DNA of 64,000 nucleotides from an uncultured bacterium (GTDB lineage: Bacteria; Verrucomicrobiota; Kiritimatiellia; CAIKKV01; CAITUY01): contig CAJBSZ010000101.1 in assembly GCA_903958395.1 (NCBI GenBank), forward strand, positions 3,894 to 67,893. Direction: 5' to 3'. The position numbers were made by a program, and so were the translations under genes. Every line of letters starts with the position of its first letter. Position 1 is the stretch's first letter. Of this stretch, positions 41,761 to 57,499 are shown one piece after another. Below the pieces are notes generated by a model. That model searched no databases, was not told the DNA's origin, and saw nothing but the letters and a program-made list of their open reading frames with translations.

Positions 41761-42663
41761 TTAGGGGGCGTGGCGGAGAGGGTCAAGAGGGGAATGAGCG
41801 GCCGCGACGGAGGTGGTGGACGATGTCGGGCAGGCGATGCAGCGGCAGAGTCCCGCCTCTTTCAGTGCCTGCGGGCCATCGAAGAAGGGCTTGTCCGGAA
41901 CCGTGAATCCCACCCGTCGGGCCTCATCCACCAGAATGTGAAGATAGTCTGTCATATGTCGCGCCGTGTAGGGATTGACATCATGAAAGTTCAGGATGAC
42001 GGTGAGCGAGGCCGCCGGACTGCCGCTGTGCCTGGCGTTTTGAAAGATCTCAATGAGGGCGTTCCGGATATGGATCCGCCGGAACAGGCTGCCCTTGTAG
42101 CCGTAGATCAGGCCGTCCCTCGCCCGGATATCCGCCATGAGCATGTGAAGTCCCAGCGCCTCATAGAGGGCCTGTGTCGTTTGATTTTTTGCCCCGAACG
42201 GCGGGCGCACGAATATCGGATCCGAGCCCGTGATGTCCCGAAGCAATGCCTGGGCCGCCTTGAGTCCTGCCTCCAATTCAGCGGGCGGGACTTTCCGGTG
42301 ATCCACATGGCCCCGGGGTGATACACTATGAATGCCGAGCAGGTGCTCCTCTGCGGCGAGGGCCCGCATGACGGCGTGGCCTTCCGGGGTGCCCCCTCCG
42401 CGCGGATGCCCCGTTTGGACAAAAAAGAGGGCCTTGGCGCCCGGTTGCACATCATTGGTGGCAAGTTGATGCAGGATGGCGAGGGTCGGGTTGTAGGGCT
42501 TTGTGATGCTGGGACCGTCATCAAAGGAGAGGATGAAGCGGATCACCGGCGGCGGAATGCCCGCATCATGCGCGGAGGGGGCGGGAATGGAGCGGCAGGA
42601 TGACAGGACTCCTGCCAGCAGGATCAAGCCCGACAGCTGTGCTGGAATCGCCGGGGATTTCAT
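41761..42663 (-). CDS. polysaccharide deacetylase (NodB-homology) lipoprotein
   Basis: Signal peptide with an LSSC lipobox, then the SFDDGP catalytic motif of carbohydrate esterase family 4; ATGA overlap with the activase gene. Confidence 0.65.
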   Translation of the reverse strand: MKSPAIPAQLSGLILLAGVLSSCRSIPAPSAHDAGIPPPVIRFILSFDDGPSITKPYNPTLAILHQLATNDVQPGAKALFFVQTGHPRGGGTPEGHAVMRALAAEEHLLGIHSVSPRGHVDHRKVPPAELEAGLKAAQALLRDITGSDPIFVRPPFGAKNQTTQALYEALGLHMLMADIRARDGLIYGYKGSLFRRIHIRNALIEIFQNARHSGSPAASLTVILNFHDVNPYTARHMTDYLHILVDEARRVGFTVPDKPFFDGPQALKEAGLCRCIACPTSSTTSVAAAHSPLDPLRHAP

Positions 42664-43634
42664 CGGGAGCCTCCCGCCTGAACCCCTTGTTCCCATTTCC
42701 GGCAGCGTCCCCCGCTGCGGCCCAGGGATTCGTCATGATCCAGGATCTCTATCACCTCGCACTGGTTCGGGCAGTCGTTGCACCGGAAGCCGCGTGTGGC
42801 GATCTCACGGTCACAGAGGCTGTAACCACGAAAACGGGTTCGGATCGGATTGGCGCGGGCTGCGAGCAGGGCCGCGCCATAAGCACCCATGACCATGTTG
42901 TGTTGCGGGATGATGACCTCGGTCTGGAGAGCCTCATTGAAGGCCCGGCGGATTCCCCGGTTGGCGCTGACCCCGCCCTGCAGGACGATGGGGGGGCGGA
43001 TTTCCTTTCCGGCGCAGACATTGCTGAGGAAGTTGCGCACCATGGCCTGGCACAGGCCCATGACGATATCGTGCTGCTGGTGGCCGGCTTGCTGCTTATG
43101 GATCATGTCGGATTCGGCAAAGACGGTGCAACGCCCCGCAATGGTGGTGGGATCGCTCGAGAGGAGCGCCCGTTCGCCCAGTTCCTCAATGGAGAGGCTG
43201 AGTCGCTTGGCTTGTGAATCCAGAAAACTTCCCGTACCCGCGGCGCAGATCAGGTTCATGGCAAAGTCCACCACCACGCCGTTGCGCAGGATCGTGACCT
43301 TGCTGTCCTGCCCCCCGATTTCAAAAATGGTGTTCGCCTCCGGGTGCAGATGCAGCGCAGCCCGGGCATGGGCGCTGATCTCATTCTTCACGATGTCCGC
43401 CCCGACGACGGCTCCGATCAGGGTGCGGGCACTCCCCGTGGTGCCGACTCCGGCGATTTCCAGGGTGCCGGGAACCGTCTGGCGCATCTCCAGAAGTGCT
43501 TTCTGAACGGAGTGGATCGGATTGCCATCAACCCGCCGGTAGGCGGTGAAGAGGACCGTCGAGCCGGAATCAATCAATACCAGATTGGTGCTGATCGAGC
43601 CGACATCAATCCCGAGATAGGCTTGGGTTGTCAT
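42660..43634 (-). CDS. BadF/BadG/BcrA/BcrD-type ATPase (HgdC-like activase of acyl-CoA dehydratase/reductase systems)
   Basis: AYLGIDVGSISTNLVL ASKHA-fold start and IFEIGGQDSKV motif; C-terminal Cys pair consistent with a bridging [4Fe-4S] cluster. Confidence 0.75.
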   Translation of the reverse strand: MTTQAYLGIDVGSISTNLVLIDSGSTVLFTAYRRVDGNPIHSVQKALLEMRQTVPGTLEIAGVGTTGSARTLIGAVVGADIVKNEISAHARAALHLHPEANTIFEIGGQDSKVTILRNGVVVDFAMNLICAAGTGSFLDSQAKRLSLSIEELGERALLSSDPTTIAGRCTVFAESDMIHKQQAGHQQHDIVMGLCQAMVRNFLSNVCAGKEIRPPIVLQGGVSANRGIRRAFNEALQTEVIIPQHNMVMGAYGAALLAARANPIRTRFRGYSLCDREIATRGFRCNDCPNQCEVIEILDHDESLGRSGGRCRKWEQGVQAGGSR

Positions 43635-44704
43635 GATGAGGCCTGCTTTCTTCGTTCCCGCAGAATGTCTGTAAAGGCTTCCAACCGGGTGACGATCCCG
43701 ACATGGCTGCTGTGTTCGTCAAATGACAGTTCGAGAATGGGGATCGAGTGGTCCTGGCTGATCTTGCGCAGGATCGGGCGGATGGTGATTTCCGGCATAC
43801 AGCCGGTGGGGGCGATATGAATGACCCCGTCATAGTGCTCCTGGGCGCAGCGCAGGGTGTAGGCCACGGATTCCAAGGCGTGGCCGCCCACCCGCGACTT
43901 GAGATAGGGACGCGCAAGCCGGTTCAGGGAGTCACGGGAATCCGGGCTCCGGAATCCGATGTGGAAGATTTTAGCCAGTTCGTTTCCGAGCAGGAAAAAA
44001 TTCTGAACCTCGACGCCCAGGCTGCCCAGGGTTTCTTCCAGGTTGTGGTTCAGATAACTGTCCCGCAGGATTGAGGCTTCGCCCAGCAGTCCGATTTTCA
44101 GGGGCCTGGCCGCTGCGTCGGTGGGGACGGTGTGGAAGCGTGCGGGAATCGTCCGGGACAGGGCCCGGATGGCAGGCACGGTTCGGGCCTCGTCCAAATC
44201 CTTGAGGCACGTATTCATGAGGCGGGTGGTGTCGCCGGTGTGGAGCTCCCGTGCCCGGGTTTCCCAGGCCAGCTTTTCAATGGCGTCCACGGCATGAACC
44301 TTGAAAAAAGCGCGGCCGCAGCAGCGGAGGAAATCGCCCATCGTGGGGTCGAAATGGCGGATCAGGGGCGGCTTGATCCCGTCATAACCCAGTCCAAAGA
44401 TGAACAGATTGAATCCGCGATCCCTGAGGATTTTCTGCTGCAGTTCCCGGTAGTACCGGAGCCGGCAGGTGCCCACGCTGTTGACCATGACCCCGTATTC
44501 CACGCCTTCCATGGCCGCCTTGATGAAATAGCCGGTCGTAGCCTTAAAGGCCAGACAGCTGAACTCGGGCGAGGCGTCCGTCCCGAGTTTCATGATTTCA
44601 GGCGTGGTGCAGCGGGTGCTCCACGGGGTGACTCGCAGGCACTCCACGGAGGCGGCCAGCGCAATCGAATAGTTTCCCCAGGGGGGTATGGCCAGGGCTG
44701 TCAT
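43631..44704 (-). CDS. DUF2229/COG3580-81-type protein (uncharacterised partner of HgdC-like activases)
   Basis: Cys-containing motifs (GTCRLRYY, RCCGRA, PTGCMPE); start trimmed to the ATG at 44704, which abuts the upstream stop. Confidence 0.55.
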   Translation of the reverse strand: MTALAIPPWGNYSIALAASVECLRVTPWSTRCTTPEIMKLGTDASPEFSCLAFKATTGYFIKAAMEGVEYGVMVNSVGTCRLRYYRELQQKILRDRGFNLFIFGLGYDGIKPPLIRHFDPTMGDFLRCCGRAFFKVHAVDAIEKLAWETRARELHTGDTTRLMNTCLKDLDEARTVPAIRALSRTIPARFHTVPTDAAARPLKIGLLGEASILRDSYLNHNLEETLGSLGVEVQNFFLLGNELAKIFHIGFRSPDSRDSLNRLARPYLKSRVGGHALESVAYTLRCAQEHYDGVIHIAPTGCMPEITIRPILRKISQDHSIPILELSFDEHSSHVGIVTRLEAFTDILRERRKQASS

Positions 44705-44705
44705 G

Positions 44706-47153
44706 TTACCATCTCGTTGAATCCACAAATGCCTCCAGCCGGGTATCCGTTCCGGCCTGTGCGGCGTGTTCATCCACCACTAAAGTCATGGTGGGAATCC
44801 CTTTTGTTTTGAGTATGTCGCGGTTGAATTCCATCACAATGGAGTCGCATCCGCAATTGAAGGAGGTGAGTTGGATGACGGCGGCGCATTCAGCCGCATC
44901 CAGGGTCTTGAGATGGTGGATCATTTTTCCGCAGGTGTCCCACTTGATGTTGCCCGTCGGCATTTCCTCGCCGTCAAAGGGCATCAGGTCAACATCCACA
45001 TCGAGTCGTTTCAAGGTGGCGAGAATGGGGCCGGAAATATAGTCGTCGTGGAGATTGTAGGGATGGCTGATGACCAGGAGTCTTTTCCGTGCCGGACCCG
45101 GGGGGCGGACGGGCGGACGGCGCGCCTGGGCGAGGGCGGCGAGGGCGGCATCGGCGGCGGTGCACGTCAGGGCTTCCTCCGCGCCAAGGCGGCGGCCCAG
45201 TTCCAGCAGGGAGTCGCGCAGGGGCGTTATGGTTTCATTGATATCAAGGCTCAGGATCCGGGTGCGGTTCCCGAACTGGGCCTCGGCAACATCGGGCAAA
45301 GCGGAAAGTTTGGGGCAGGCAATGTGTCCCTTCAGGCCCGACAAAAGACGTGGAACAAAAAGCCGATCCACTTTACCGGCGAGTTCGGCCAGGTGGGCGT
45401 CGAGTAGTTTGAGTGGCAGGCAATGTTCCGATTCCGAGATCAGGACGGCCTGCTCGACCGTGTGACGGGTTGAAGCGCCGGACATTACGGGGGTGTGTCC
45501 GAGCTGGGTGAAGAAGGTTTCGAAAAGGGAGGGATAGTAAAAATAATACAGGGCGCGGGGGATGCCGATGGTCAGCGGCCTGAAACCTGTGCCATCCACC
45601 ACCGTTTTCAAAGCGGTGAAAGCGTCTGGGCGCATCTCCTGGAGAATCATGAGGCTGGCGTTGACGGCGGCCTTGGTGGCCATGGGCACTCCGCCCCCGT
45701 ACTCCGCCCATTGGCCGCCCAGCAACAACCGTTTGACGGGGGTCGTGAGAGTGGCGAGGCGGGCGTGGATGTTTTTTTGGGTCGGCTTGTGTCCCATGAT
45801 CGAGCCGTCCCGGTTTCCCGTGTAGCGGTGGAACGTAACCGGAGTGGCCACCTCCCTGACCTCGATGTGGCGGCGAAGGCCGGGGATCAGCAGGCGCTCG
45901 ACCCGGTCGAGAATCGTGTCGGTGAATTCCTGCTTATACCGGCGATAGGCTTCCCCGCGCTCCAGACCGGGTCCGGTTTCCCACTGATTGTGATGGGACA
46001 GGTAGGAGGGGCACTGGATGAGGAGAGTGCCTTTCCCCGGAGGGGCCAGGGAGGGATCGCGGAGAGAAGGGGCCAGAACGCTGATCAGGGTGGAATGGGC
46101 TTCTCCACTGACCCGATCTTCCAGGGGTATGGAGTCCTCAGTCAGGCGAACCAGGGACTCATCCAATCCAAGCGAGGCGGGGGGGCAATCCAGTCCCAGA
46201 TAAATTGAGAAGCTGGAGTAATACAGATCTGCATGACGAAGGCGCTTGAGTATTCTGGCGGGAACGCTGGCAGGGGGAAGCATCGTGGTGAAGAGCTGTT
46301 CCACATCGCAGGCGGCGATGACGTAGCGGGCGTGCACGGTGTCGCCGGTGGCGAGCCGGACTCCGGTCGCTTTTTTGGAGGCGTTGACGAGGACTTCACG
46401 GACGCGTTGGTTCAGGGTGATTCGGCCGCCGTTTTCGGTGATTTTCCGGCACAGCCAGTCCACCATTACGGCGCAGCCTCCCTCAGGCGGCTTTTGGAAA
46501 TCACCTGTGAAAGCGAACCCCAGCGGGACGAGAACCGACATCATGGTGCCATCGGAGTGAAAGAGATTCAGGAGTTCGCGGGTCTTGAAATAGCGGGTTA
46601 ATCCCCTGGCGGCCGGGGTTGATACCATATGGCGGATGGGCCAGACCCAGCCCGTCATGGCCAGGCCGTGATGCAGGAGTTCGCGGGGGGACATGGTTTT
46701 CACCGACCGCATGCGGTTGTCGAGGAACAGCATATGATGGCCGAGGCGTTCGGCGTCCCGGAAGAGTTTCTGAATCCCCTTTGATTCATGGGGAAAGTCC
46801 TGGATCAGTTGATCGCGAAGTTCCAGAGGGTTCGAGGTGAGCAGATAATTATGACCGGTGTTTTTATAGCGATGAATCCGCTGGAGCGGGACATAGCGCG
46901 GGCCGTCGTTGCCAATGGCGTGCTGAATACGGGCGAGAAAGCCGCCCGGGCGGCATTGGTTCAGCCATTCAAGGGAGGCGTCAAACGTGAATCCCTTGCG
47001 GTGGAACGAGGCCAGACAGCCGCCCGCCTGTGATTCTGTTTCGAAGAGCTCGACACGGAGACCGGCCTTCGACAGCAGGGCGGCGGCAGTTAATCCTGCA
47101 ATACCACCCCCGATGATCACGACATCGCAGTGAGTTGGACGGCCCATAGTCAC
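44706..47153 (-). CDS. fusion: CrtI/phytoene-desaturase-family FAD oxidoreductase (N-terminal ~500 aa) + DUF2229/HgdB-like domain (C-terminal ~300 aa)
   Basis: N-terminal CDVVIIGGGIAGLTAAALLSKAGLRVELFE dinucleotide-binding motif and the amine-oxidase/CrtI-like body. The C-terminus carries TIGIPRALYYFYYPSLFETFF and SFNCGCDS motifs typical of activase-associated DUF2229 proteins. Confidence 0.6.
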   Translation of the reverse strand: MTMGRPTHCDVVIIGGGIAGLTAAALLSKAGLRVELFETESQAGGCLASFHRKGFTFDASLEWLNQCRPGGFLARIQHAIGNDGPRYVPLQRIHRYKNTGHNYLLTSNPLELRDQLIQDFPHESKGIQKLFRDAERLGHHMLFLDNRMRSVKTMSPRELLHHGLAMTGWVWPIRHMVSTPAARGLTRYFKTRELLNLFHSDGTMMSVLVPLGFAFTGDFQKPPEGGCAVMVDWLCRKITENGGRITLNQRVREVLVNASKKATGVRLATGDTVHARYVIAACDVEQLFTTMLPPASVPARILKRLRHADLYYSSFSIYLGLDCPPASLGLDESLVRLTEDSIPLEDRVSGEAHSTLISVLAPSLRDPSLAPPGKGTLLIQCPSYLSHHNQWETGPGLERGEAYRRYKQEFTDTILDRVERLLIPGLRRHIEVREVATPVTFHRYTGNRDGSIMGHKPTQKNIHARLATLTTPVKRLLLGGQWAEYGGGVPMATKAAVNASLMILQEMRPDAFTALKTVVDGTGFRPLTIGIPRALYYFYYPSLFETFFTQLGHTPVMSGASTRHTVEQAVLISESEHCLPLKLLDAHLAELAGKVDRLFVPRLLSGLKGHIACPKLSALPDVAEAQFGNRTRILSLDINETITPLRDSLLELGRRLGAEEALTCTAADAALAALAQARRPPVRPPGPARKRLLVISHPYNLHDDYISGPILATLKRLDVDVDLMPFDGEEMPTGNIKWDTCGKMIHHLKTLDAAECAAVIQLTSFNCGCDSIVMEFNRDILKTKGIPTMTLVVDEHAAQAGTDTRLEAFVDSTRW

Positions 47154-47584
47154 GCCAGAGTGAAAAACGCGGCGGCATCCAGGATGGAAAGCCCGTTTTT
47201 GTGAAGGGCTTTGGAGGCCTGGTCGGGCTTGTCCACCCGGACAATCATGATTGCGTTACTGCCCCGCTTAAGGGTAAAGGCGTACATGTATTCGATGTTG
47301 ATGGCATTGGGTTCCAGGATGGCCAGAATGCTTTCCATACCCCCGGGATGATCCGGAATTTCAATGGCCAGTACATCGCTGATAGTCACCACGCAGCCGG
47401 CCTTCTCCAGTACGTCCCGGGCCTTTTCCCACTCCCTGATCATGATCCTCAGAATGCCGAATTTTCCAGTGTCCGCGAGGCAGAGGGTTGGGATATTGAT
47501 GCCTGCCGCCGCCAGCACCTTGCAAGGATGGCCGAGGCGGCCGGGTTTGTTTTCCAGACAGACAGACAGTTGTTTCAGTGTCAT
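47150..47584 (-). CDS. tandem ACT-domain protein
   Basis: Two ~65-aa beta-alpha-beta-beta-alpha-beta ACT-like units; 4-bp overlaps on both sides. Confidence 0.6.
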   Translation of the reverse strand: MTLKQLSVCLENKPGRLGHPCKVLAAAGINIPTLCLADTGKFGILRIMIREWEKARDVLEKAGCVVTISDVLAIEIPDHPGGMESILAILEPNAINIEYMYAFTLKRGSNAIMIVRVDKPDQASKALHKNGLSILDAAAFFTLA

Positions 47585-49608
47585 ACGCCCTCCTTTCCGG
47601 TCAACAGTTGTGAAGCCATGAAATGTTTCCGAATCGCACCGGTAAGGGCCATGGGATCGGTCCGGTTCAGCCGGTCAAGCACCCGTTCCCACCGATAGGC
47701 AAAACTGCCCTTTTCATCACGCGGGCGTTGTTTAAAAAGCGTATCGAAGGACCGTTTTCGCCGTGTATAATCCTGTTTCACATGAAGAAACCGTTCCGTA
47801 AATGAGGCAAGATAAGCCTCCAGCACTTCTCCGGGAGAGGAAAAAAAGGGGAGTCGGCGTCGGATGGGCTCCGCATAGGCCTCCGCAAAGGAAGCCAGAT
47901 CAGACTGATAATCCGTGAAGGTGCCGGTGTGATCGGCGACGATGATTTCCCTGGGCATGCCGAACTCGTCCTCTATCAAAACCTCATCGCCATCGTCGAA
48001 CAGCACGGCGTTTTTCAGGTTCAGGCGGCCTGTGATGATATTGGACGCGGCGGCCCGGCCCAGTAACCTCGCAAAGGCGAGGGAATACGTGAGGCTCTGG
48101 AAACGGGAACGGGGGATCTTGTCGGTGGCCATGCCGGAGAGATAGTCGCGTTCGAAATAGGTGGACCAGATCTGCTGGCCGTCATACCGGGTTCCGTGGT
48201 AGTGCTCGCTGATTTTGCGGGTTGTGATGCGGGCGGGCAGGTTCATGCCCAGCTGACGGCAGCCCAGTCTGCGATCCAGGATATATTCGGTGTAGTCCTC
48301 CGCCTCCATGATGGCGGGGAGGAGATCCTTGCCCTCGTTCAGGTGTTCCCGGATTCCCCATTTCTGCATGCGAAGAATACGGACAACAGGGTGCGGCGAA
48401 CTGTTTTGTTTGATCTCCGCCACATACACATCGCGGCGGCCGGAGCTCGAGGGTCGGCGTGATAGCGAGCCGATGACCCGGCCGACATTGACATAATCAA
48501 TATCCCCGAATTCGCGAAGGAAATTAAAGATGAACCCGCGTGCCTTTTCGTCGCAGAGGATCCTCAATTCGGAATCAGGGGGTGAACGATCCGCTTCATC
48601 GAAAAGGCTGTCGAACATCAATTCCCCCTCTTCGATGCGGCCGCCGGGGAGCCATTCGATCTGCATGAAGAATTCGGAACTCAGTCCGAGGATGGTTTCT
48701 TCGGGAAGGGCTTCGCCTCCCTGACCGATCAGGCATGAAAACATCAGGTTTCGCCAGTCGGGATTATCGGGATTGTCTTCCCTCATTTCCGGCCGCACGG
48801 CATCGCGAAAGGCCGCTTTGAGGTGTTCATAACAGGTGCGGATATCCGGAGGAGATTGATCCATGGGTTCGCAGGGTTTGAAGCTGGAATGGTCGAATGA
48901 TTTGTCGGTGGAAAAAAAGGCTACTTCGGGGTGGCCCATGCGGTTGTAGCGGCATGAAAAATCCCGGATTTCAATCAGATGTGCCTGGAGTTCATTGTCC
49001 GGCAGGGTTTCGAGTTCACAGAACTGCTGGTAGGTCAGGAATCGCGTGCCGATGTCGCGACTGTAATAGTAGATGGAACGGCCCCCGATCGGCAGCATGG
49101 CTGAGGCGATCATGCGTTTCATTTCATCAGGACTTTGGGGGAGCAGGGCAATCCGCCAGTTTTCGCCACGTTCCTTGATGGCATAGCGGACTTTTTCATT
49201 CATGAGGTTGAGAAACTTGATTTTCTGCTTGGAGACCAGTTCCTGAAGCAGGTCGTCGGCTTCGAAGGCCAGTGCCATGTTCTCGGGATCAGGCCGGATC
49301 AGGATGCTCCCGGGGTCCATGATCAGGTCAACCGACAGCTGCCATTCCAGCATCTCGTCCTCTTCGGACAGCGGGGGCTGGTTGGCTTGTTTCCGGGTGG
49401 CGTTAAGATCGGCGATATAGGCAAAGCGCTGGGTGGCGTGGATGCCGGGCAGGGTGACGAGGGTCCGGCTCCGGGGAAAGATCGTGCCGATCCGTGAGAT
49501 CAATCGTCCCTGCTGATCCTTCGCAAGCGGGTGTTCACCTAGAATTCGAATAGTCATTCCCTCGCATACTACCAATCCCTCCCTGTATTGAACAATCTGC
49601 TTTTTCAT
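47581..49608 (-). CDS. large hypothetical protein; C-terminal region with AceK-like (isocitrate dehydrogenase kinase/phosphatase family) motif, tentative
   Basis: No standard motif in the N-terminal half. The C-terminal half has AAASNIITGRLNLKNAVLFDDGDE, which resembles the AceK catalytic-loop/metal-binding segment AAANIFPGDMLFKNFG...FYDYDE (recalled from E. coli AceK). Start placed at ATG 49608. Confidence 0.35.
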   Translation of the reverse strand: MKKQIVQYREGLVVCEGMTIRILGEHPLAKDQQGRLISRIGTIFPRSRTLVTLPGIHATQRFAYIADLNATRKQANQPPLSEEDEMLEWQLSVDLIMDPGSILIRPDPENMALAFEADDLLQELVSKQKIKFLNLMNEKVRYAIKERGENWRIALLPQSPDEMKRMIASAMLPIGGRSIYYYSRDIGTRFLTYQQFCELETLPDNELQAHLIEIRDFSCRYNRMGHPEVAFFSTDKSFDHSSFKPCEPMDQSPPDIRTCYEHLKAAFRDAVRPEMREDNPDNPDWRNLMFSCLIGQGGEALPEETILGLSSEFFMQIEWLPGGRIEEGELMFDSLFDEADRSPPDSELRILCDEKARGFIFNFLREFGDIDYVNVGRVIGSLSRRPSSSGRRDVYVAEIKQNSSPHPVVRILRMQKWGIREHLNEGKDLLPAIMEAEDYTEYILDRRLGCRQLGMNLPARITTRKISEHYHGTRYDGQQIWSTYFERDYLSGMATDKIPRSRFQSLTYSLAFARLLGRAAASNIITGRLNLKNAVLFDDGDEVLIEDEFGMPREIIVADHTGTFTDYQSDLASFAEAYAEPIRRRLPFFSSPGEVLEAYLASFTERFLHVKQDYTRRKRSFDTLFKQRPRDEKGSFAYRWERVLDRLNRTDPMALTGAIRKHFMASQLLTGKEGV

Positions 49609-49645
49609 GGTGACAGTTGAGTCGGATTGAATACGATGGGGGGCT

Positions 49646-50566
49646 ATGAATTCGGTATACACCACAACGATTACCCGGGAAGCGCGCACGCGCGGGATTC
49701 AAATTGAAGTGATTGATCCCCGGACTCCCATTTTCGTGCTCAGGCATAAGGGAAAGTCAATCCGGTGTTACAACGCCCTGACGGATCGGGTTGGGGCGGT
49801 GACTTTTCAGATGACCCAGAACAAGGCCCTGGCCAATGTCTTTCTCAAGTCCCGCGGGTTTCCCGTTCCGGCCCAGCAACTTTTCACGGAGCCGGTGTCG
49901 GCGGAGCGTTTTTTGAAGCGATACCGCAGTATTGTTGTTAAACCCTGCTCCCAATGGGGCGGGCGCGGGGTGTCGGTGGCGGTGAAAACGGCTGAGGAAT
50001 TGGCCTGTGCCGTGCGTTTTGCGAAGCGGTTTGAGGAGGAGATCATTCTCGAACAGTATGTCGAGGGAGTGGACTACCGCCTGATATTTGTGGATTTCAA
50101 ATTCGTAGCGGCTATTCGCCGGCGATCCGCCCATGTGGAGGGGAATGGCCGGGATTCAATCCGGAACCTGGTGCAGGCAAAGAACCGGCAGGAACGGCGC
50201 GTTGATCCGAGTCATATCATTCCGCTCGATGCCGAGACGGCTCGCAACCTCAAGGTTTTAGGCCTGTCGTGGGAGCAGGTTCCTGCGGCGGGGCGGGTTG
50301 TTCGCGTCAGGTTGACCTCCAACTACCATACTGGCGGTGATGTGGATGTGGTGACCCATACGGTCAATCGGAAGCTGGTGGCCTTGGCCAGGCGTGCCGT
50401 GAAAGCGCTGAACGTTCCGGTCATTGGCATTGATTTCCTGGTGAATGAGGCAAGCGGTCGGTCGTGGCTGATTGAGTTGAGCCCCGATCTGGCAATTTCC
50501 CCGCCCGAGGGCGAAGAGGTGGCCCGGCATTTCATGAACTTCCTGTTCCCGGAGACAAAACGATGA
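49646..50566 (+). CDS. stand-alone cyanophycin-synthetase-like (CphA G-domain/RimK-type) ATP-grasp ligase
   Basis: IVVKPCSQWGGRGVSVAV...IILEQYVEGVDYRLIFVDFKFVAAIRR closely follows the CphA ATP-grasp core KP.dGN.GRGV...vvE.yi.G.DyRllVv...vAA..R. Confidence 0.65.
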   Translation: MNSVYTTTITREARTRGIQIEVIDPRTPIFVLRHKGKSIRCYNALTDRVGAVTFQMTQNKALANVFLKSRGFPVPAQQLFTEPVSAERFLKRYRSIVVKPCSQWGGRGVSVAVKTAEELACAVRFAKRFEEEIILEQYVEGVDYRLIFVDFKFVAAIRRRSAHVEGNGRDSIRNLVQAKNRQERRVDPSHIIPLDAETARNLKVLGLSWEQVPAAGRVVRVRLTSNYHTGGDVDVVTHTVNRKLVALARRAVKALNVPVIGIDFLVNEASGRSWLIELSPDLAISPPEGEEVARHFMNFLFPETKR

Positions 50567-51864
50567 AATCCTGTCATCTGGTTGGCGTTGCGGGTGTGGG
50601 GATGAATGCCTTAGCTCAGGCACTCAAGGGGGGTGGGTGGGCGGTCAGCGGCTCGGACCGTTATGAGGATCAGGGCCAGGATCTTGAGGTGATCCGGAAG
50701 CTGAAGGAGGCGGGAATTCGATTTTATCCGCAGGATGGATCCGGGATATCCCGAGAGACGGGTGCGGTGGTCGTGAGTACCGCGATTGAGAAGGATAATC
50801 CCGATATCGTCGCTGCGGAAAGGCTTGGGGTCCCTGTGCGGCACCGGGCCGAAATGCTAGCCGAACTCGTTCAGGGAAAGAAAACGGTGGCGATTGCGGG
50901 GACCTCCGGAAAAACGACGGTAACGGGCATGGTCGGCTGGCTTCTCGAGCAACTCGGAGCTGATCCCACGGTGGTCAATGGCGGGGCTCTGGTGAACTGG
51001 GCGGATGATCATCATGTGGGAAACGCGCGAACAGGCGGCTCAGGACTTTGCGTGATTGAGGTCGATGAGAGTGATCGCTCGCTCCTGCGGTTTTCACCCG
51101 ACCGGGCCTTGATTACCAATATGTCGGCTGATCATTTCAGCCTGGAGGAGACCGTCGGGCTTTTCAGCCAGTTCAGGAGTCAGGTCCGGTGCGATTGTAT
51201 TGCAGGGTGGGATCCCGGAATGCCGTGGCAGGGCCTGAAGCCGGTGCTGAGCCGGACCGGGTGCCGCTTCGCTTATGGCGGGCTTGAGTTCGAAATTTCG
51301 TTACTAGGGGCACACAACGCCGAAAATGCGCTTCAGGCGGTTGTGCTGTGCCAGCGAATGGGTTTTGACTTAGGTCGCATTCGCGATGCCCTGGCTCAAT
51401 TCAAGGGTATTCAGCGGCGCCTGGAGCGGGTGGGGGAAGCCGGCGGGGTGACGGTGGTGGATGAGTATGCCCATAACCCGGCGAAAATTTCGGCCGCCTG
51501 GCGGGCTGTGGCTCCTTATTATTCGCGGGTCACCGCGTTCTGGCGCCCGCATGGATTCAAGCCGTTGTCCCTGATGTTCAACGATCTGGTGGCGATGTTC
51601 GGGGACGTATGCCGCCCGCAGGACCGGCTTTTTCTGATGCCGGTGTATTACGCGGGAGGGACGGTGAGTAAGGCGATGGACTCGGATGTGCTTGCGACGG
51701 CGTTGCAGGCGCGCGGGGTGCCCGCCGTATGGGTTCCGGATTACGACCGGTTGATGTCCGGGATTATGAAAGACAGTCAAGCGGGCGAGGTCGTGCTATG
51801 CGTGGGCGCCCGGGACCCCGGCATCCCCCGGTTTGCCCGCGAGTTGGTGACTCGTCTGGGATGA
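50563..51864 (+). CDS. MurC/Mpl-family Mur ligase (paralog of the fused murC)
   Basis: HLVGVAGVGMNALAQALKGGGWAVSGSD Rossmann N-domain, VAIAGTSGKTT P-loop and a VVDEYAHNP C-domain motif; it resembles Mpl/MurC rather than MurE/F. ATGA overlap with the ATP-grasp gene. Confidence 0.7.
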   Translation: MKSCHLVGVAGVGMNALAQALKGGGWAVSGSDRYEDQGQDLEVIRKLKEAGIRFYPQDGSGISRETGAVVVSTAIEKDNPDIVAAERLGVPVRHRAEMLAELVQGKKTVAIAGTSGKTTVTGMVGWLLEQLGADPTVVNGGALVNWADDHHVGNARTGGSGLCVIEVDESDRSLLRFSPDRALITNMSADHFSLEETVGLFSQFRSQVRCDCIAGWDPGMPWQGLKPVLSRTGCRFAYGGLEFEISLLGAHNAENALQAVVLCQRMGFDLGRIRDALAQFKGIQRRLERVGEAGGVTVVDEYAHNPAKISAAWRAVAPYYSRVTAFWRPHGFKPLSLMFNDLVAMFGDVCRPQDRLFLMPVYYAGGTVSKAMDSDVLATALQARGVPAVWVPDYDRLMSGIMKDSQAGEVVLCVGARDPGIPRFARELVTRLG

Positions 51865-51879: not shown

Positions 51880-54800
51880 TCATTGTATGGATTGGCGTCG
51901 CAAGACCACCCGTTCCATCAAGACATACATGGCGGGCAGGACGAGCAGGGTTAACAGTTGGGAGGTGATGATGCCACCCATGACGACAACGGCCAGCGGT
52001 TTCTGGATGTCGGCGCCGGAACCGGTGGCATAGAGCATGGGGAGATGCCCGATGAAACTGGTCAGTGCTGTCATCATCAACGGCCGGAACCGGATGTCGC
52101 ATCCGGTTCGGACAGTGTCGGAAAGGCCCAATCCGCTGTCACTCAACTGGCGGAAAAAGGCGACGAGCACCACGCCATTCTGAACGGCGATGCCGAGCAG
52201 GACGATGAAGGCCACGGCTGAGGAAACGGAGAGATTGATTCCGAATGCCGCCACCGCCAGTACGCCGCCCACCAGGGCGAAGGGCAGATTCGCGAGGACG
52301 AGCAGGGAATGCCGGACCGAGCCCAGCGCCGCAAAGAGCAGGATGAAAATCAGGATCAGGGCGATGGGCACCACGATGGATAATTGGCGCATGGCGCGCT
52401 GCTGATTTTCAAATTGGCCCCCGTATTCAATGAAATAGCCCGTCGGTAACTCGCGGGCCAGCGGAGCGAGCTTCTGTTGAATGTCCTTCACGAACCCCCC
52501 GAGGTCGCGCCCGCGGACATTGGTTTCGACCACCACCCGGCGCATGCCGTTTTCGCGGCTGATCTGGGCCGGCGACTCAATGCGCATGAACGAGGCCAGC
52601 TGATCGAGCGGAACCCGCTCCCCGCCGGGTGCCACGATCCATAACCGTTTAATGGCCTCCTCGTCCCGGCGTGACTTTTCCTCGAAGCGGACCACCACGG
52701 CGAAGCGCTTTTCTCCTTCAATCAGGGTGGTGGCACGGGTGCCTGCAATGGCGCTTTCGATGGTGTCGTTGATGTCGCTAATCCGGATGCCATGGCGGGC
52801 CGCCGCCTGGCGGTCAATCACCACATCCAGTTGGTTCATTCCGGTCACCTGTTCAACTTTCGTGTCCTGGGCGCCGGGCGCCGAACGGATGACGCCTGCC
52901 GCGCGGTCGGCAAATTGCCGGATCAGGGTGAGATCGGGGCCAAAGACTTTTACGGCCAGATCGCTCTTGATTCCCGAAATCAGTTCATTGACCCGCAGGG
53001 CGATGGGTTGCGAGAAGGAAAACCGGAGGCCGGGAATGATGGAAAGATCCCGGTTAATGGCGTCCACAAGGTCTTCCCGATTGCGTCCGGATGACCATTG
53101 TTTCCGGTGCTTGAGAACAATAAAGACGTCCGTCTGTTCGGGGCCCATGGGATCTTCCGAAATTTCGGCCCGGCCGGTCTTGCAGATCACGCTTTCGATC
53201 TCCGGGAACCGGCGCAGTTGTTTTTCCATGAAATCGGCGACCCGCACCGAGCCTTCGATCGAGGCGTTGGGGAGGCGGACCACATTGATGGCGATCGCAC
53301 CCTCATCCAATGTCGGCATGAATTCCGTTCCGATAAAGGGAATGGCCCCCAGTGAGGCAACCAGGATTCCCACCGCCAGCCCCAGGGTCAGGCCCGGGCG
53401 CCGCATGGCCCGGTCAAGCAGGGCGAGATAGCCGTGATGAAATTTTTTGATAAACCCGAATTCCCGCTCCGGGTCCTGTTTGAGGGTCAGGTCGGCCAAT
53501 ACGGGAATGGTCGTGAACGCGACGCCGAGCGAAACCAGCAGGGCGATAAGCAGGGTCAGCGCGAGCGGAGCGAACATCTTTCCCTCAATGCCCTGAAGGG
53601 TGAACAGCGGAACCAGAATGATGGCGATAATCATCACGGAAAAGGCCACCGGCCGGCCGACTTCCTGGACGGCCTCGGTGATGACGGTTCGCCGCGGTTC
53701 ATGCAGTCGCAGGGCCAATTGGCGCCGGATGTTTTCGATCACGACAATCGAGGCATCCACCACCATGCCCACCGAGAAGGCCAGCCCGCCCAGGCTCATC
53801 AGATTGGAACTGAGGCCGGCCCAGCCCATGAAGATGAAACTGACAAGGAAGGTGAGGGGCAGGGATAGCACCACAATCAGGGCGGTTCGCATCTCGGCAA
53901 TGAACAGAAATAGAATCAGGATCACGAAGAGCGAGCCTTCCATCAAGGCGGTCATGACGGTCGAGATGCAGGCCTTGACCAGCGAGGTTCGGTCGTAGAA
54001 AACATTGACCCGAACTCCTTCGGGAAGAGTGCCGCGCACCTTGTCCAGGGCATCCTTGACGCGGGCGACCACCTCGCGGGAATTTTCGCCCTTCAGCATG
54101 ATGATCATTCCCGCCACGACTTCGCCGCGGCCATCCCGGGTGACGGCACCCTGGCGGGGCTCGGTGCCGATCACCACCTCAGCCACATCCTTCACGCGCA
54201 CCGGGGTGCCATCCATTGCCTTGATCACCAGTTGCTCGATGTCGGGAATGTCCTTGAGCAGCCCCACTCCCCGTAAATAGACCTGTTCCCAGCCGCTGAC
54301 GAGGACACCCCCGCCTGCGTTGGCATTGCCGCGCTCGACGGCGGCGGTGACCTCGGCGACGGTCAGTTTATATTGGGCCAGCTTTTCGGGAGTTAACAGA
54401 ATCTGATACTGCCGTACCGCACCCCCGAAACTGTTTACCTCGTTGACGCCCGCCACCGGTTTGAGCATCGGGGCTACAAGCCAGTCCTGGAGGGTGCGGA
54501 GTTCCATGGCGTTGTGCCGGTCGCTCTCCAGGGTATATTGGAAAATTTCACCCAATCCGGTGCTGAGCGGGCCCAATTCGGGTTCCGTTCCCGGGGGTAA
54601 CTGGTCCCGGGCCATGGCCAGTCGCTCGAATACTACCTGGCGTGTCCAATAGGTGTCCACCCCGTCCTGGAAGATGACGACCACCTGCGACAAGCCTGCA
54701 CGGGAGAGGGATCGGACCTGGGTGACCTTGGGAAGGCCCCGCATCACCTGTTCAAGCGGATAACTGATCCGCTGTTCGACGTCTATGGCCGCCAAGCCAC

Positions 54801-54960
54801 TCGCCTTGGTCAGGATCATGACCTGGGTGTTGGTGACGTCCGGGAATGCGTCGATGGGAAGGGTTTTCCAGGCGACCAGCCCCGCCAGGGCGAGGGCGAC
54901 AGTGCCAAGCATGACCATGAGGCGCTGGGCGAGTACGGCTTTTATGAGGAGGTTAAACAT
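51880..54960 (-). CDS. heavy-metal-efflux RND permease (CusA/CzcA family)
   Basis: 1026 aa with 12 TM helices and two large periplasmic loops; HME-RND-type sequence. Confidence 0.85.
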   Translation of the reverse strand: MFNLLIKAVLAQRLMVMLGTVALALAGLVAWKTLPIDAFPDVTNTQVMILTKASGLAAIDVEQRISYPLEQVMRGLPKVTQVRSLSRAGLSQVVVIFQDGVDTYWTRQVVFERLAMARDQLPPGTEPELGPLSTGLGEIFQYTLESDRHNAMELRTLQDWLVAPMLKPVAGVNEVNSFGGAVRQYQILLTPEKLAQYKLTVAEVTAAVERGNANAGGGVLVSGWEQVYLRGVGLLKDIPDIEQLVIKAMDGTPVRVKDVAEVVIGTEPRQGAVTRDGRGEVVAGMIIMLKGENSREVVARVKDALDKVRGTLPEGVRVNVFYDRTSLVKACISTVMTALMEGSLFVILILFLFIAEMRTALIVVLSLPLTFLVSFIFMGWAGLSSNLMSLGGLAFSVGMVVDASIVVIENIRRQLALRLHEPRRTVITEAVQEVGRPVAFSVMIIAIILVPLFTLQGIEGKMFAPLALTLLIALLVSLGVAFTTIPVLADLTLKQDPEREFGFIKKFHHGYLALLDRAMRRPGLTLGLAVGILVASLGAIPFIGTEFMPTLDEGAIAINVVRLPNASIEGSVRVADFMEKQLRRFPEIESVICKTGRAEISEDPMGPEQTDVFIVLKHRKQWSSGRNREDLVDAINRDLSIIPGLRFSFSQPIALRVNELISGIKSDLAVKVFGPDLTLIRQFADRAAGVIRSAPGAQDTKVEQVTGMNQLDVVIDRQAAARHGIRISDINDTIESAIAGTRATTLIEGEKRFAVVVRFEEKSRRDEEAIKRLWIVAPGGERVPLDQLASFMRIESPAQISRENGMRRVVVETNVRGRDLGGFVKDIQQKLAPLARELPTGYFIEYGGQFENQQRAMRQLSIVVPIALILIFILLFAALGSVRHSLLVLANLPFALVGGVLAVAAFGINLSVSSAVAFIVLLGIAVQNGVVLVAFFRQLSDSGLGLSDTVRTGCDIRFRPLMMTALTSFIGHLPMLYATGSGADIQKPLAVVVMGGIITSQLLTLLVLPAMYVLMERVVLRRQSIQ

Positions 54961-54972
54961 GGCTGTGACTCC

Positions 54973-56217
54973 TTAATCCGCGCAACCGGCGCCCATTTTT
55001 TCGCGCAACACATCCGACTTAAGCAGAAAGGCGCCTTCGGTGACGACCTTCTGTCCCTCGGCCAATCCCTCCAGGATTTCGATTGAATCGCTGAAGTGGC
55101 GTCCCTTTTTGACGGGAGTGCGAATGTAATAGTCGTCCTTCAGATGAGTGAAGACAAAGCATTGGCCCTCGTCCTCCAGAACGGCATTACGGGGAACCGC
55201 CAGGACATCCTCGTTGCAAGTCCAGATCAGGTTGGCCTTGCAGAACATTCCGGGTCGGAGAAGGCCTTCCGGGTTGGGTATCAGGGCGCGTGCTTTCACG
55301 GTTCGAGTCGTTTCATCCATCGTGGCACCGAGGGTTTCAAGAGTCCCTTTGAATGGGTGCCCCGGGAAAGCCCTCGTTTCAAGGGTTACCAACAGGGGTG
55401 ACTTGGCGGCAGCCGCAAGAACGGCGGCAAGGTCACGTTCGTAGAGATCGAGCCAGACCCAGACGGAGGAGAGGTCCGATAGGGTCATGGCCGTCTGGCC
55501 GGGCTGAATACGATTCCCGGAAACCGCCTGCTTTTCAATCAAGGTTCCCGCCTGGGGAGATCTGAGGGAAAGGGTGCGGGGCGATTCTCCGGTGAGGGCG
55601 GCTATGTCAGATTCTGAAAATCCCATTGTATTAAGGGTATGGGCGGCGGCATCCCGATCCGTTTTGATCGTTTCGTAACGGATTTCGGCCTCGTCGGCTT
55701 CCACTTGGGCCGAGACTTTTTGCTCAGCCAGTCCCTTTTCCCGTTGGTAGGTGCGCTGGGCCGTTTGGGTCAGGGCGCGATTTTTGATATAGGAGCTGAT
55801 TGCATCGCCCAATTCGGCGCTCTCGATTTCAGCCAGGATGTCGCCCGGCTTCATGAGTTTGCCGATGTCGCCCCTGACATTGCGGAGAATGCCGGGAACG
55901 GGGGAGGAGATGCGGACGGTGGCGTTTTCGTTGAGTGCGATTTCGCCGACTGCCGCGAGTCCCTGTTCCAGCTTCTGGCGGGTGGCGGAACCGAATTGAA
56001 CCAGTGCCGGACTATTGGTTCCGGGGGTGAGAAGTGCTGGTGCGAGTTTAACCACGCCGGGTTCATACCGGCATTCATCGCAGGTATAAATCAGGATTTC
56101 ATGTTCGCACATCCGCGTCATCAGGTCGTCTTTCGGAGCCTCGGCCTGAGTTTGAAGAATGGCACTCATGAGGCAGATTATTCCCGTTACTATTAAGTTT
56201 TGTGTTTTTGTCGTCAT
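54973..56217 (-). CDS. RND efflux periplasmic adaptor (CusB/CzcB/HlyD family) with Cys/His-containing N-terminal segment
   Basis: Membrane-fusion-protein lipoyl and beta-barrel domains; N-terminal MCEHEILIYTCDECRYE possible metal site. Confidence 0.75.
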   Translation of the reverse strand: MTTKTQNLIVTGIICLMSAILQTQAEAPKDDLMTRMCEHEILIYTCDECRYEPGVVKLAPALLTPGTNSPALVQFGSATRQKLEQGLAAVGEIALNENATVRISSPVPGILRNVRGDIGKLMKPGDILAEIESAELGDAISSYIKNRALTQTAQRTYQREKGLAEQKVSAQVEADEAEIRYETIKTDRDAAAHTLNTMGFSESDIAALTGESPRTLSLRSPQAGTLIEKQAVSGNRIQPGQTAMTLSDLSSVWVWLDLYERDLAAVLAAAAKSPLLVTLETRAFPGHPFKGTLETLGATMDETTRTVKARALIPNPEGLLRPGMFCKANLIWTCNEDVLAVPRNAVLEDEGQCFVFTHLKDDYYIRTPVKKGRHFSDSIEILEGLAEGQKVVTEGAFLLKSDVLREKMGAGCAD

Positions 56218-56230
56218 AGATATCCTCGGC

Positions 56231-57499
56231 TTAGGGTTGGTTGAAAAGTGTCAGTCCTGTTGTTTCTCCGGTGAGTCGGCCGATCGCGGCCAGAACTTTA
56301 TGGTATTCGGACAGGGTATTGATCCAGCGGGCGCGAAGACTCACAAAGGAACGCTCCGCGTCAACCCATTCAAGGTACGAGAATTTACCCTGTTCATAGC
56401 CGATTTTTGCCTTCTCCGTGGCGTCACGGGCGGCGGGCAGGGCCTTGTCACGCAGGGCCGCGATTTCCTGCCAGGCATTTTCCGCCGCCACAAGCAAGTT
56501 CGCATGGTCGGCTTGCTGCTGAAGGAGGGCGGTCTGTTGAAGCTGTTCGGCGCGTAATACTTCGTGACCGGCTTTTTGAATGCCCGCCCGGTTCCGGTTA
56601 AAGAGGGGGATTGGCAGGGCGATGCCGCCTACCCAGGCGAATTCCTCATTGTTCTCGAAACGGCGTAAGCCGGCCGAGACCACGACATTGGGATAGGCCA
56701 TGGCCCGTTCGCGGGTTAAGGCGGCATTCCGGGCGGCGAGTTCCGTTTGCGCCCGCATGAGAGCCGGAGCGGTCGACGGGGATTGCGTTCCTGAATCGGG
56801 GAGGCTTCCTTTCTGAACTGAATCAAGCCGTCCCTTTATGGAGTTGAAATCCGGCTTGGCGTGGCCCCAGAGGAGAGCCAAGCGGCGATGGGTCAATTGG
56901 GTCTGGCGGCGGGCTTTATTCAATTCCACCTGTGCCAGTGTGGATTCGACTTCAGCCCGTGAGGCTTCAAGAGGGGGCGCCTTGCCTGCCTGTACCCGTT
57001 GTGAAATCAGGCGGTAACGCTCCCCTGTGAGCCGCAGGTTATCTCCGGCAATCGCTTCCTGTTCCCCGGCTTGCAAGGCTTCGACATAGCGTTCCATAAG
57101 GGTGTGCCAGAGTTCAAGCTGGCAGGTTTTCTGTTCCACCCGTGAAAGGTCAGTTCCGGCACGGGCTTCCGCAATTCGGGCCCTGCGCTTCCCGCCTGTC
57201 TCGACGGGTTGGTTGATGAGCAGGGTGGTTTCGGCCGCATCCCAGCCTGAATTCGGCCCGGATCCTCCGAAGTTTTCAGCCTCCACCGAAAGCTCGGGAT
57301 TGAGCTGGGTGTCGGCCTGAGTGGCGGCGCTTCGGGACGCCTCGACGCTGGATCGTGCGGCGGAAAGGGTTGGGTTGAGGTGTTGAATCTTTTCCCAAGC
57401 CTGGTCAAATGAAAGACTGGCCTCGTCGGCGTGTGTCATTGGCAGCAGACTGAGCGTCACGCCAATGGCCATAAAACAATGTTTTGTGAATAAAGACAT
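56231..57499 (-). CDS. outer-membrane efflux protein (TolC/CzcC/CusC family)
   Basis: Signal peptide, two OEP repeats, 422 aa. Confidence 0.75.
   Translation of the reverse strand: MSLFTKHCFMAIGVTLSLLPMTHADEASLSFDQAWEKIQHLNPTLSAARSSVEASRSAATQADTQLNPELSVEAENFGGSGPNSGWDAAETTLLINQPVETGGKRRARIAEARAGTDLSRVEQKTCQLELWHTLMERYVEALQAGEQEAIAGDNLRLTGERYRLISQRVQAGKAPPLEASRAEVESTLAQVELNKARRQTQLTHRRLALLWGHAKPDFNSIKGRLDSVQKGSLPDSGTQSPSTAPALMRAQTELAARNAALTRERAMAYPNVVVSAGLRRFENNEEFAWVGGIALPIPLFNRNRAGIQKAGHEVLRAEQLQQTALLQQQADHANLLVAAENAWQEIAALRDKALPAARDATEKAKIGYEQGKFSYLEWVDAERSFVSLRARWINTLSEYHKVLAAIGRLTGETTGLTLFNQP

Follow-up and report, generated by a model that had tools for sequence, protein, structure and literature searches.

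The window analysed here is a 64-kb stretch of contig CAJBSZ010000101.1, from an uncultured bacterium of the Kiritimatiellia, and it is closest to metagenome-assembled genomes (MAGs) of the Planctomycetes-Verrucomicrobia-Chlamydiae (PVC) group and to Kiritimatiellia-like MAGs (90-93% amino-acid identity). Five tightly packed genes lie on its minus strand between 42660 and 49608, and the subject of this analysis is the largest gene at their upstream end, which encodes a two-domain protein whose C-terminal half is predicted to adopt a protein-kinase-like fold with a remote resemblance to AceK, the isocitrate dehydrogenase kinase/phosphatase. A gene for a pair of ACT domains and three redox genes follow on the same strand, and a pair of ligase genes diverges from it on the other (Table 1). 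An earlier note on this DNA had described the large protein as an orphan with an AceK-like kinase motif that would regulate the enzymes encoded downstream.

Table 1. Coordinates of the large gene, its parts and its neighbours in the window. Residue numbers, here and in the text, follow the 675-residue version of the large protein; aa, amino acids; ORF, open reading frame.
Feature	Position	Strand	Basis or remark
Large ORF	47581..49608	(-)	675 aa from ATG 49608; family of ~650-aa proteins
Maximal extent of the large ORF	47581-49689	(-)	702 aa with GTG start at 49689
N-terminal domain, residues 18-312, mixed alpha/beta	48673..49557	(-)	Domain model, conservation
His57 codon	49438..49440	(-)	Residue invariant in 76 of 76 members
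C-terminal protein-kinase-like domain (predicted), residues 313-675	47584..48672	(-)	Model, Foldseek, topology
VYVAEIK, residues 394-400	48409..48429	(-)	Strand earlier taken as the ATP-lysine strand; probably beta-2
AceK-like core, residues 428-546	47971..48327	(-)	hhalign to E. coli AceK 364-482
Most conserved motif, G517..AA.N...G527-R528 ... F537-D538-D539-G540-D541-E542	47983..48060	(-)	Alignments, column counts
ACT domain pair protein, 144 aa	47150..47584	(-)	PF19571
Downstream redox genes	42660..47153	(-)	Pfam, NCBIfam
Divergent ATP-grasp ligase (306 aa) and MurC-like ligase (433 aa)	49646..51864	(+)	Pfam, NCBIfam

The long minus-strand ORF of the earlier note is indeed present, and stands in the ORF list at its maximal extent. 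The 702-residue product proposed for it is unlikely, because translation from the GTG would overlap the start of the divergent ATP-grasp gene and because most homologs begin at the equivalent of M18. This methionine is encoded by the ATG at 49557, the start used by most homologs, and gives a product of 658 residues; in an AlphaFold2 model, the preceding residues 1-17 have a predicted local distance difference test (pLDDT) score below 50. On these three grounds, the large protein most likely comprises 658 residues, or 675 at most.

The label of orphan is wrong. Among 5.8 billion proteins, at least 1,773 homologs were found, an exhaustive profile search of cluster representatives placed relatives in 608 clusters at 50% identity (E <= 1e-3), and when a single genome was scanned for each GTDB species, relatives turned up in 232 species. 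The best 120 homologs are 55-90% identical to the query over ~96% of its length and ~650 residues long; in the sources seen they are named only as "hypothetical protein", and they lack precomputed Pfam domains. The best 80 of the 232 species are all represented by MAGs, and belong to the Kiritimatiellia/"Verrucomicrobiota", the Lentisphaerae and the Planctomycetota (Thermoguttaceae, Pirellulales, Phycisphaerales and Tepidisphaerales), with the single exception of a short contig binned as Bacillota. Among 40 family members from two phyla, mean column identity is 61%. Searches of the large protein against Pfam, NCBIfam, PADLOC and PHROGs gave zero matches, HMMER runs against PDB sequences, whether started from the single protein or from two profiles, returned noise only, and a description of the family was not found in literature searches. 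The gene thus belongs to an unnamed, strongly conserved family found mainly in PVC-group bacteria (Kiritimatiellia, Lentisphaerae and Planctomycetota).

The full-length AlphaFold2 model, built on 40 homologs, has a mean pLDDT of 83.7 and a predicted template modelling (pTM) score of 0.72. In this model, the C-terminal domain has an N-lobe of five strands together with a long alpha-C helix, followed by the alpha-E helix, a catalytic-loop region and a tail made of helices. The order of elements over residues 370-560 (beta1-beta2-beta3-alphaC-beta4-beta5-alphaE, then the loop region and a beta-hairpin) fits a kinase N-lobe. When compared with the PDB by Foldseek, all of the 50 best matches were protein or lipid kinases, most of them of the Hanks type and most with a probability of 0.6-1.0; the matches are weak, with E values of 2.4e-4 at best. 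This best value belongs to the lipid kinase Vps34 (probability 1.00), PI4KIIIbeta was matched at E = 1.8e-3, and the others include VRK2, PINK1, RIPK2, JAK2 JH2, PknA, PknG, Aurora A and LegK7. The model and these matches support a protein-kinase-like domain in the C-terminal ~360 residues, and the earlier expectation of such a fold was borne out.

Vps34 and PI4KIIIbeta, of the PI3K/PI4K lipid kinases, resemble the large protein in having a bilobal kinase fold after a large extra domain, but template modelling (TM) scores are 0.25-0.42, identity is 9%, and the family has no recognisable DRHxxN or DFG motif. With the Hanks Ser/Thr kinases (PF00069) the family shares a fold class but no sequence signal, the hhalign score to a planctomycete Hanks kinase being only 14.5, and it lacks their Gly-rich loop consensus, VAIK lysine, HRD aspartate and APE motif.

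A sequence signal was found for AceK. The AceK-like peptide quoted in the earlier note, AAASNIITGRLNLKNAVLFDDGDEVLIEDEFG, is present at residues 519-550, and in BLASTP against E. coli AceK the stretch AA.NI..G...D.DE is matched at E = 0.22. With a narrow profile (A1) of members 55-90% identical, the hhalign score to E. coli AceK is 24.6 (P = 0.043), which is marginal. With a diverse profile (A4) of 76 full-length representatives that are 26-55% identical to the query (effective number of sequences, Neff, 5.6), the score is 38.7 against E. coli AceK alone (P = 4.2e-4, probability 34.5%), 39.8 against three AceKs (P = 4.5e-4, probability 33.3%) and 45.7 over 112 columns against 15 AceK representatives (P = 1.3e-4, probability 54%). 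These 15 representatives, 47-84% identical to E. coli AceK, came from a metagenome scan that replaced a first AceK homolog search, which had returned E. coli and Proteus sequences only and brought no gain in diversity. As controls for A4, 70 unrelated proteins scored 16.8 on average (standard deviation 2.9, maximum 28.0), 40 shuffled AceK sequences reached 25.2 at most, and reversed AceK scored 22.1. Eight other kinase-fold proteins (E. coli HipA, YeaG, UbiB, SrkA, SelO, WaaY and WaaP, and the planctomycete Hanks kinase) scored 13.5-22.8, leaving AceK as the only kinase-fold family tested that gives a sequence signal against the large protein. Because the score rises with the diversity of both profiles, and because AceK alone responds in this way, there is moderate, though not conclusive, support for a true remote homology between the core of the C-terminal domain and the kinase domain of AceK.

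The aligned core runs from alpha-C to the Mg-binding DxDE loop, and four blocks pair in the same order in AceK and the family: the alpha-C motif E(F/Y)xx(F/Y)(V/I)L(D/E)(K/R)R, the beta-5 motif Y(F/I)ER, the end of alpha-E (AA.NI..G) and the acidic loop (F.D.DE). The overall layout is also alike, as AceK is a protein of ~600 residues in which an atypical kinase-fold domain at the C-terminus follows a large N-terminal domain. The two differ in that the segment from GR to DDGDE is 7 residues shorter in the family, and in that the family is found in PVC bacteria rather than in Proteobacteria and has no link to icd or aceBA. Thus, the resemblance proposed in the earlier note exceeds chance once the diverse profile is used, whereas membership in the AceK family did not hold up: genuine AceKs carry both PF06315 and PF20423, and even with the cut-off relaxed to E <= 10, neither model matches the query, any of 40 members or the consensus of the family.

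In AceK, the catalytic triad is formed by Asp457, Asn462 and Asp475, ATP is held by Lys336, and the phosphatase reaction requires Asp477 (PMC3747045). Equivalent positions in the family were taken from the hhalign alignment of A4 with AceK, and columns were counted over the 76 diverse members of A4. By this alignment, Asp477 and Glu478 are kept as D541 (D in 68 of 76) and E542 (E in all 76), and Asp475 pairs with D539 (D in 53). Around them, AceK N452 corresponds to N523 (N in 65), G456 to G527 (G in 72) and F473 to F537 (F in 74). In contrast, the catalytic base Asp457 is replaced by a near-universal arginine, R528 (R in 74, K in the other two), and Asn462 is lost, falling on the variable position 533 (G in 45, K in 8, others in the rest). 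As aligned, then, the family keeps the acidic loop that serves Mg binding and the phosphatase reaction in AceK, and carries an arginine in the position of the kinase base.

Conservation extends well beyond this loop. H57, N374 and E542 are the only residues that are fully invariant in the 76 members. Residues conserved in at least 90% include, in the N-terminal half, the near-invariant R105, D118, G148, R152, G187, R189, T192, E213, N222 and E228 together with W151 and W285; from position 319 onwards W319, P321, G322, R413, Y439, R446, R487, G492, G517, A520 and A521; and from position 527 onwards G527, R528, F537, D538, G540, F564, W640 and R646. Conserved acidic candidates in the catalytic region are D538, D539, D541, E542 and D559. 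That so many polar residues are fixed in both domains argues for an enzyme rather than a scaffold, and the abundance of arginines among the conserved residues suggests an anionic substrate.

The strand VYVAEIK is also present as quoted in the earlier note, where it had been read as the strand of the ATP-binding lysine. This reading is probably not correct. The strand is probably beta-2, since K400 lies on the second strand of the model and is a lysine in 49 of 76 members (64%). An extended hhalign alignment, of low confidence, pairs VYVAEIK with the AceK beta-2 strand MVMLVFTL, and pairs AceK RVFK336VIK339 with VVR410ILR413, so that the beta-3 position would carry R413 (R in 71 of 76, K in 3). 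As a candidate for the ATP lysine, K400 has equal spacing to the alpha-C motif; it was dropped for its poor conservation and for the strand order.

The N-terminal domain was modelled on its own with a pLDDT of 87.2. Foldseek found no solved match to this model of ~295 residues in the PDB (best E 0.25, TM below 0.22), and hhalign gave no confident alignment of this part of the family to AceK, whose regulatory domain (PF20423) has no detected counterpart in it. A scan of the longer family members for informative fusions turned up one fusion only, to a TIR domain, and in it the kinase-like half can no longer be recognised. This protein (P0246, 751 residues) has the family N-terminal domain at residues 1-280, with its histidine; an unrelated segment forms the middle, and at the C-terminus stands a TIR domain (PF13676, E = 3.4e-17; ThsB-like in PADLOC). 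It suggests that the N-terminal domain can also occur where the kinase-like half is missing, though it is one example and could be a gene-calling chimera.

Based upon these observations, we favour, at a probability of roughly 60%, the view that the large gene encodes a stand-alone, non-canonical, nucleotide-dependent enzyme of two domains, which belongs to an unnamed PVC family and contains an AceK-related kinase-like domain. Such an enzyme would act in the cytoplasm, and its kinase-like cleft would bind Mg-ATP or Mg-ADP. The acidic F-x-D-x-D-E loop, which in AceK binds the Mg-nucleotide (D475) and supports the phosphatase reaction (D477), appears to be kept. The most likely mechanism would be a phosphoryl transfer or hydrolysis that proceeds without an aspartate as general base. 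An anionic group or a phosphorylated substrate could serve as the acceptor, its charge stabilised by the conserved arginines, and the N-terminal domain may contribute a second catalytic residue or else form the site where the substrate binds.

Several points weigh against this interpretation. On the structural side, the Foldseek matches to kinases have low TM-scores (0.27-0.45 per target), and the list of the 50 best PDB matches contains no AceK structure. On the sequence side, one of 108 unrelated decoys outscored AceK when the narrow profile was used, and the hhalign probability stays at or below 54% (33-54%); with A4, Proteus AceK alone gives no signal and Aeromonas AceK alone reaches only P = 0.015, and HMMER finds no link between the family and AceK or any PDB chain. 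The residue equivalences, moreover, come from an alignment and not from a superposition. In another register, D541 could be the catalytic aspartate and D559, after the hairpin at 542-557, a DFG-like aspartate. Finally, the apparent loss of both the catalytic aspartate and the canonical lysine is also what a pseudokinase would look like.

This last point is the core of the foremost alternative, in which the kinase fold is catalytically dead and the protein is a pseudokinase, or a sensor of nucleotides or other ligands, that acts by binding. The arginine at the AceK base position, the poor conservation at Asn462, the canonical beta-3 lysine that is absent or replaced by arginine, and the presence of JAK2 JH2 pseudokinase domains among the Foldseek matches are all as expected for such a protein. 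Yet among members that are only 26-55% identical, H57, N374 and E542 are invariant and R528, D538 and D541 are kept in at least 89%, a pattern more typical of an active site, and several kinase-fold enzymes work without the canonical triad. We consider a dead kinase fold unlikely. It is less plausible that the resemblance to kinases and AceK reflects chance or convergence, and that the C-terminal half has some other fold and function. The weak Foldseek E values, TM-scores below 0.5, hhalign probabilities of 54% at most and the silence of HMMER would all fit a chance resemblance, but two independent lines agree, in that every one of the 50 structural matches is a kinase and the sequence signal coincides exactly with the catalytic core, where it exceeds 110 negative controls and the eight other kinase-fold proteins.

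A different alternative, and the one put forward in the earlier note, is that an AceK-type kinase/phosphatase works together with the ACT protein as a sensor to regulate the FAD and activase enzymes encoded downstream. The arrangement in the window is suggestive in this respect. Four to five same-strand genes have overlapping or abutting ends, and the stop codon of the large ORF overlaps the start of the ACT gene in an ATGA at 47581-47584. Given this overlap and a Shine-Dalgarno-like run, GGAAAGGAGGG, just upstream of the ACT start, translational coupling of the two genes is plausible in the window genome, as the earlier note had proposed. The ACT protein itself is well supported (PF19571, ACT_8, over residues 1-139; E = 4e-26, 91.9 bits against a cut-off of 23.5). 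The redox module was likewise confirmed, and encodes an 815-residue CrtI-like flavin adenine dinucleotide (FAD) oxidoreductase fused to DUF2229, a 380-residue HGD-D-like protein and a 324-residue BcrAD/BadFG activase. The first of these is an unusual fusion, with a CrtI/CrtD-family FAD oxidoreductase at residues 10-510 and a DUF2229 "CoA enzyme activase" domain at residues 528-721.

These associations do not extend to the family. Neighbours were counted by tblastn, with the proteins encoded next to the large gene in the window as queries, across 80 related loci. The ACT gene adjoins the family gene in three of the 80, all of them at least 90% identical to the query, and in a relative that is 84% identical an SLT gene stands in its place. 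The FAD-DUF2229, HGD-D and activase genes lie beside the family gene in one of the 80 and in a further locus, L006; the three redox genes recur in L006 and L012 only. The gene order of the window is seen only in relatives that are at least 84% identical. In addition, clustering of the two genes on each side of the family gene revealed no family-wide partner, and ten other contexts of the family gene are mutually unrelated, the gene usually having its own intergenic spacers. Thus, the ACT and redox genes are recent neighbours and not conserved partners of the family, and because the family gene lies in mutually unrelated contexts elsewhere, a role as their regulator is unsupported. Conservation across phyla would demand a target wherever the family occurs, and the catalytic base of the kinase is missing. 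In spite of the similarity to AceK, the operon-regulator proposal is therefore improbable in our view.

The only neighbour kept across the Kiritimatiellia-like clade is the divergent pair of ligase genes, which is also present in L006 and L007; within the 80 loci, the ATP-grasp ligase occurs in 16 and the Mur-type ligase in 9, in this clade only. In the window, the MurC-like gene begins with a 4-nucleotide overlap after the ATP-grasp gene and scores below the murC cut-off. In NCBIfam, the ATP-grasp protein comes closest to N-acetylglutaminylglutamine synthetase and cyanophycin synthetase without reaching either cut-off, and the pair of ligases looks like a split enzyme of the cyanophycin-synthetase type. 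MurC-like ligase neighbours also gave the highest decoy scores against A4, at L017 1041-2411 (23.8) and L019 1043-2410 (28.0); these align over family columns 374-442, probably by chance. Beyond the pair, on the minus strand of the window, a 1026-residue ORF at 51880-54960 has many hydrophobic segments and resembles an RND-type efflux pump by eye, and is followed on the same strand by long ORFs at 54973-56217 and 56231-57499.

Other contexts of the family gene occur singly. They include a topoisomerase VI and Asp-tRNA synthetase neighbourhood, a Hanks kinase (L004) and GH94 genes (L097). In one locus (L009 1-18094, homolog P0067), the family gene lies inside a glycogen-metabolism cluster with a CBM48/alpha-amylase gene, three GH57 genes, a glycogen-synthase-like GT5 gene and a debranching-type amylase gene. 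A phosphofructokinase gene lies two genes from the family gene in L008, and in L094 the family gene adjoins those for the E1 alpha and beta subunits of a 2-oxoacid dehydrogenase. The links to carbon metabolism in L008, L009 and L094 are not recurrent.

The earlier note had also proposed to look for icd nearby, and tblastn with E. coli Icd found no homolog in the window (64 kb) or in any of 91 related loci. The large protein is not a member of the AceK family, because the Pfam AceK models are unmatched, neither Asp457 nor Asn462 is conserved, the N-terminal domain shows no relation to any solved fold, the AceK regulatory domain included, and icd is not nearby; on the same grounds, and despite the sequence signal and the similar layout, it is very improbable that the protein is the functional equivalent of AceK, an isocitrate dehydrogenase kinase/phosphatase of PVC bacteria.

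If the two-domain enzyme that we favour does descend from the same lineage as AceK, a more far-reaching version can be considered, which we hold only tentatively and regard as unlikely as it stands. The family would then be a new branch of the AceK lineage in which an arginine has taken the place of the general base and works with His57 of the structurally new N-terminal domain. Possible chemistries for such a branch would include an ATP-dependent phosphohistidine enzyme, resembling a dikinase, or a nucleotide-dependent phosphatase acting on a conserved, PVC-specific target.

No regulator of the neighbouring redox genes follows from this finding. It does bring to light a sizeable family (608 clusters at 50% identity) that databases have yet to model, and an N-terminal domain to which no solved structure is related, both of which are useful targets for structure determination and annotation. 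AceK is the classic case of a kinase and a phosphatase that share one active site, and we know of no described relatives of it outside the Proteobacteria. A distant, strongly conserved sister family in PVC bacteria, in which the Mg and phosphatase residues are kept and the kinase base is exchanged for arginine, could throw light on the evolution of the AceK active site and on the reaction that each of its residues serves. Should the new-branch reading prove true, AceK would also cease to stand alone as a family with no known kin.

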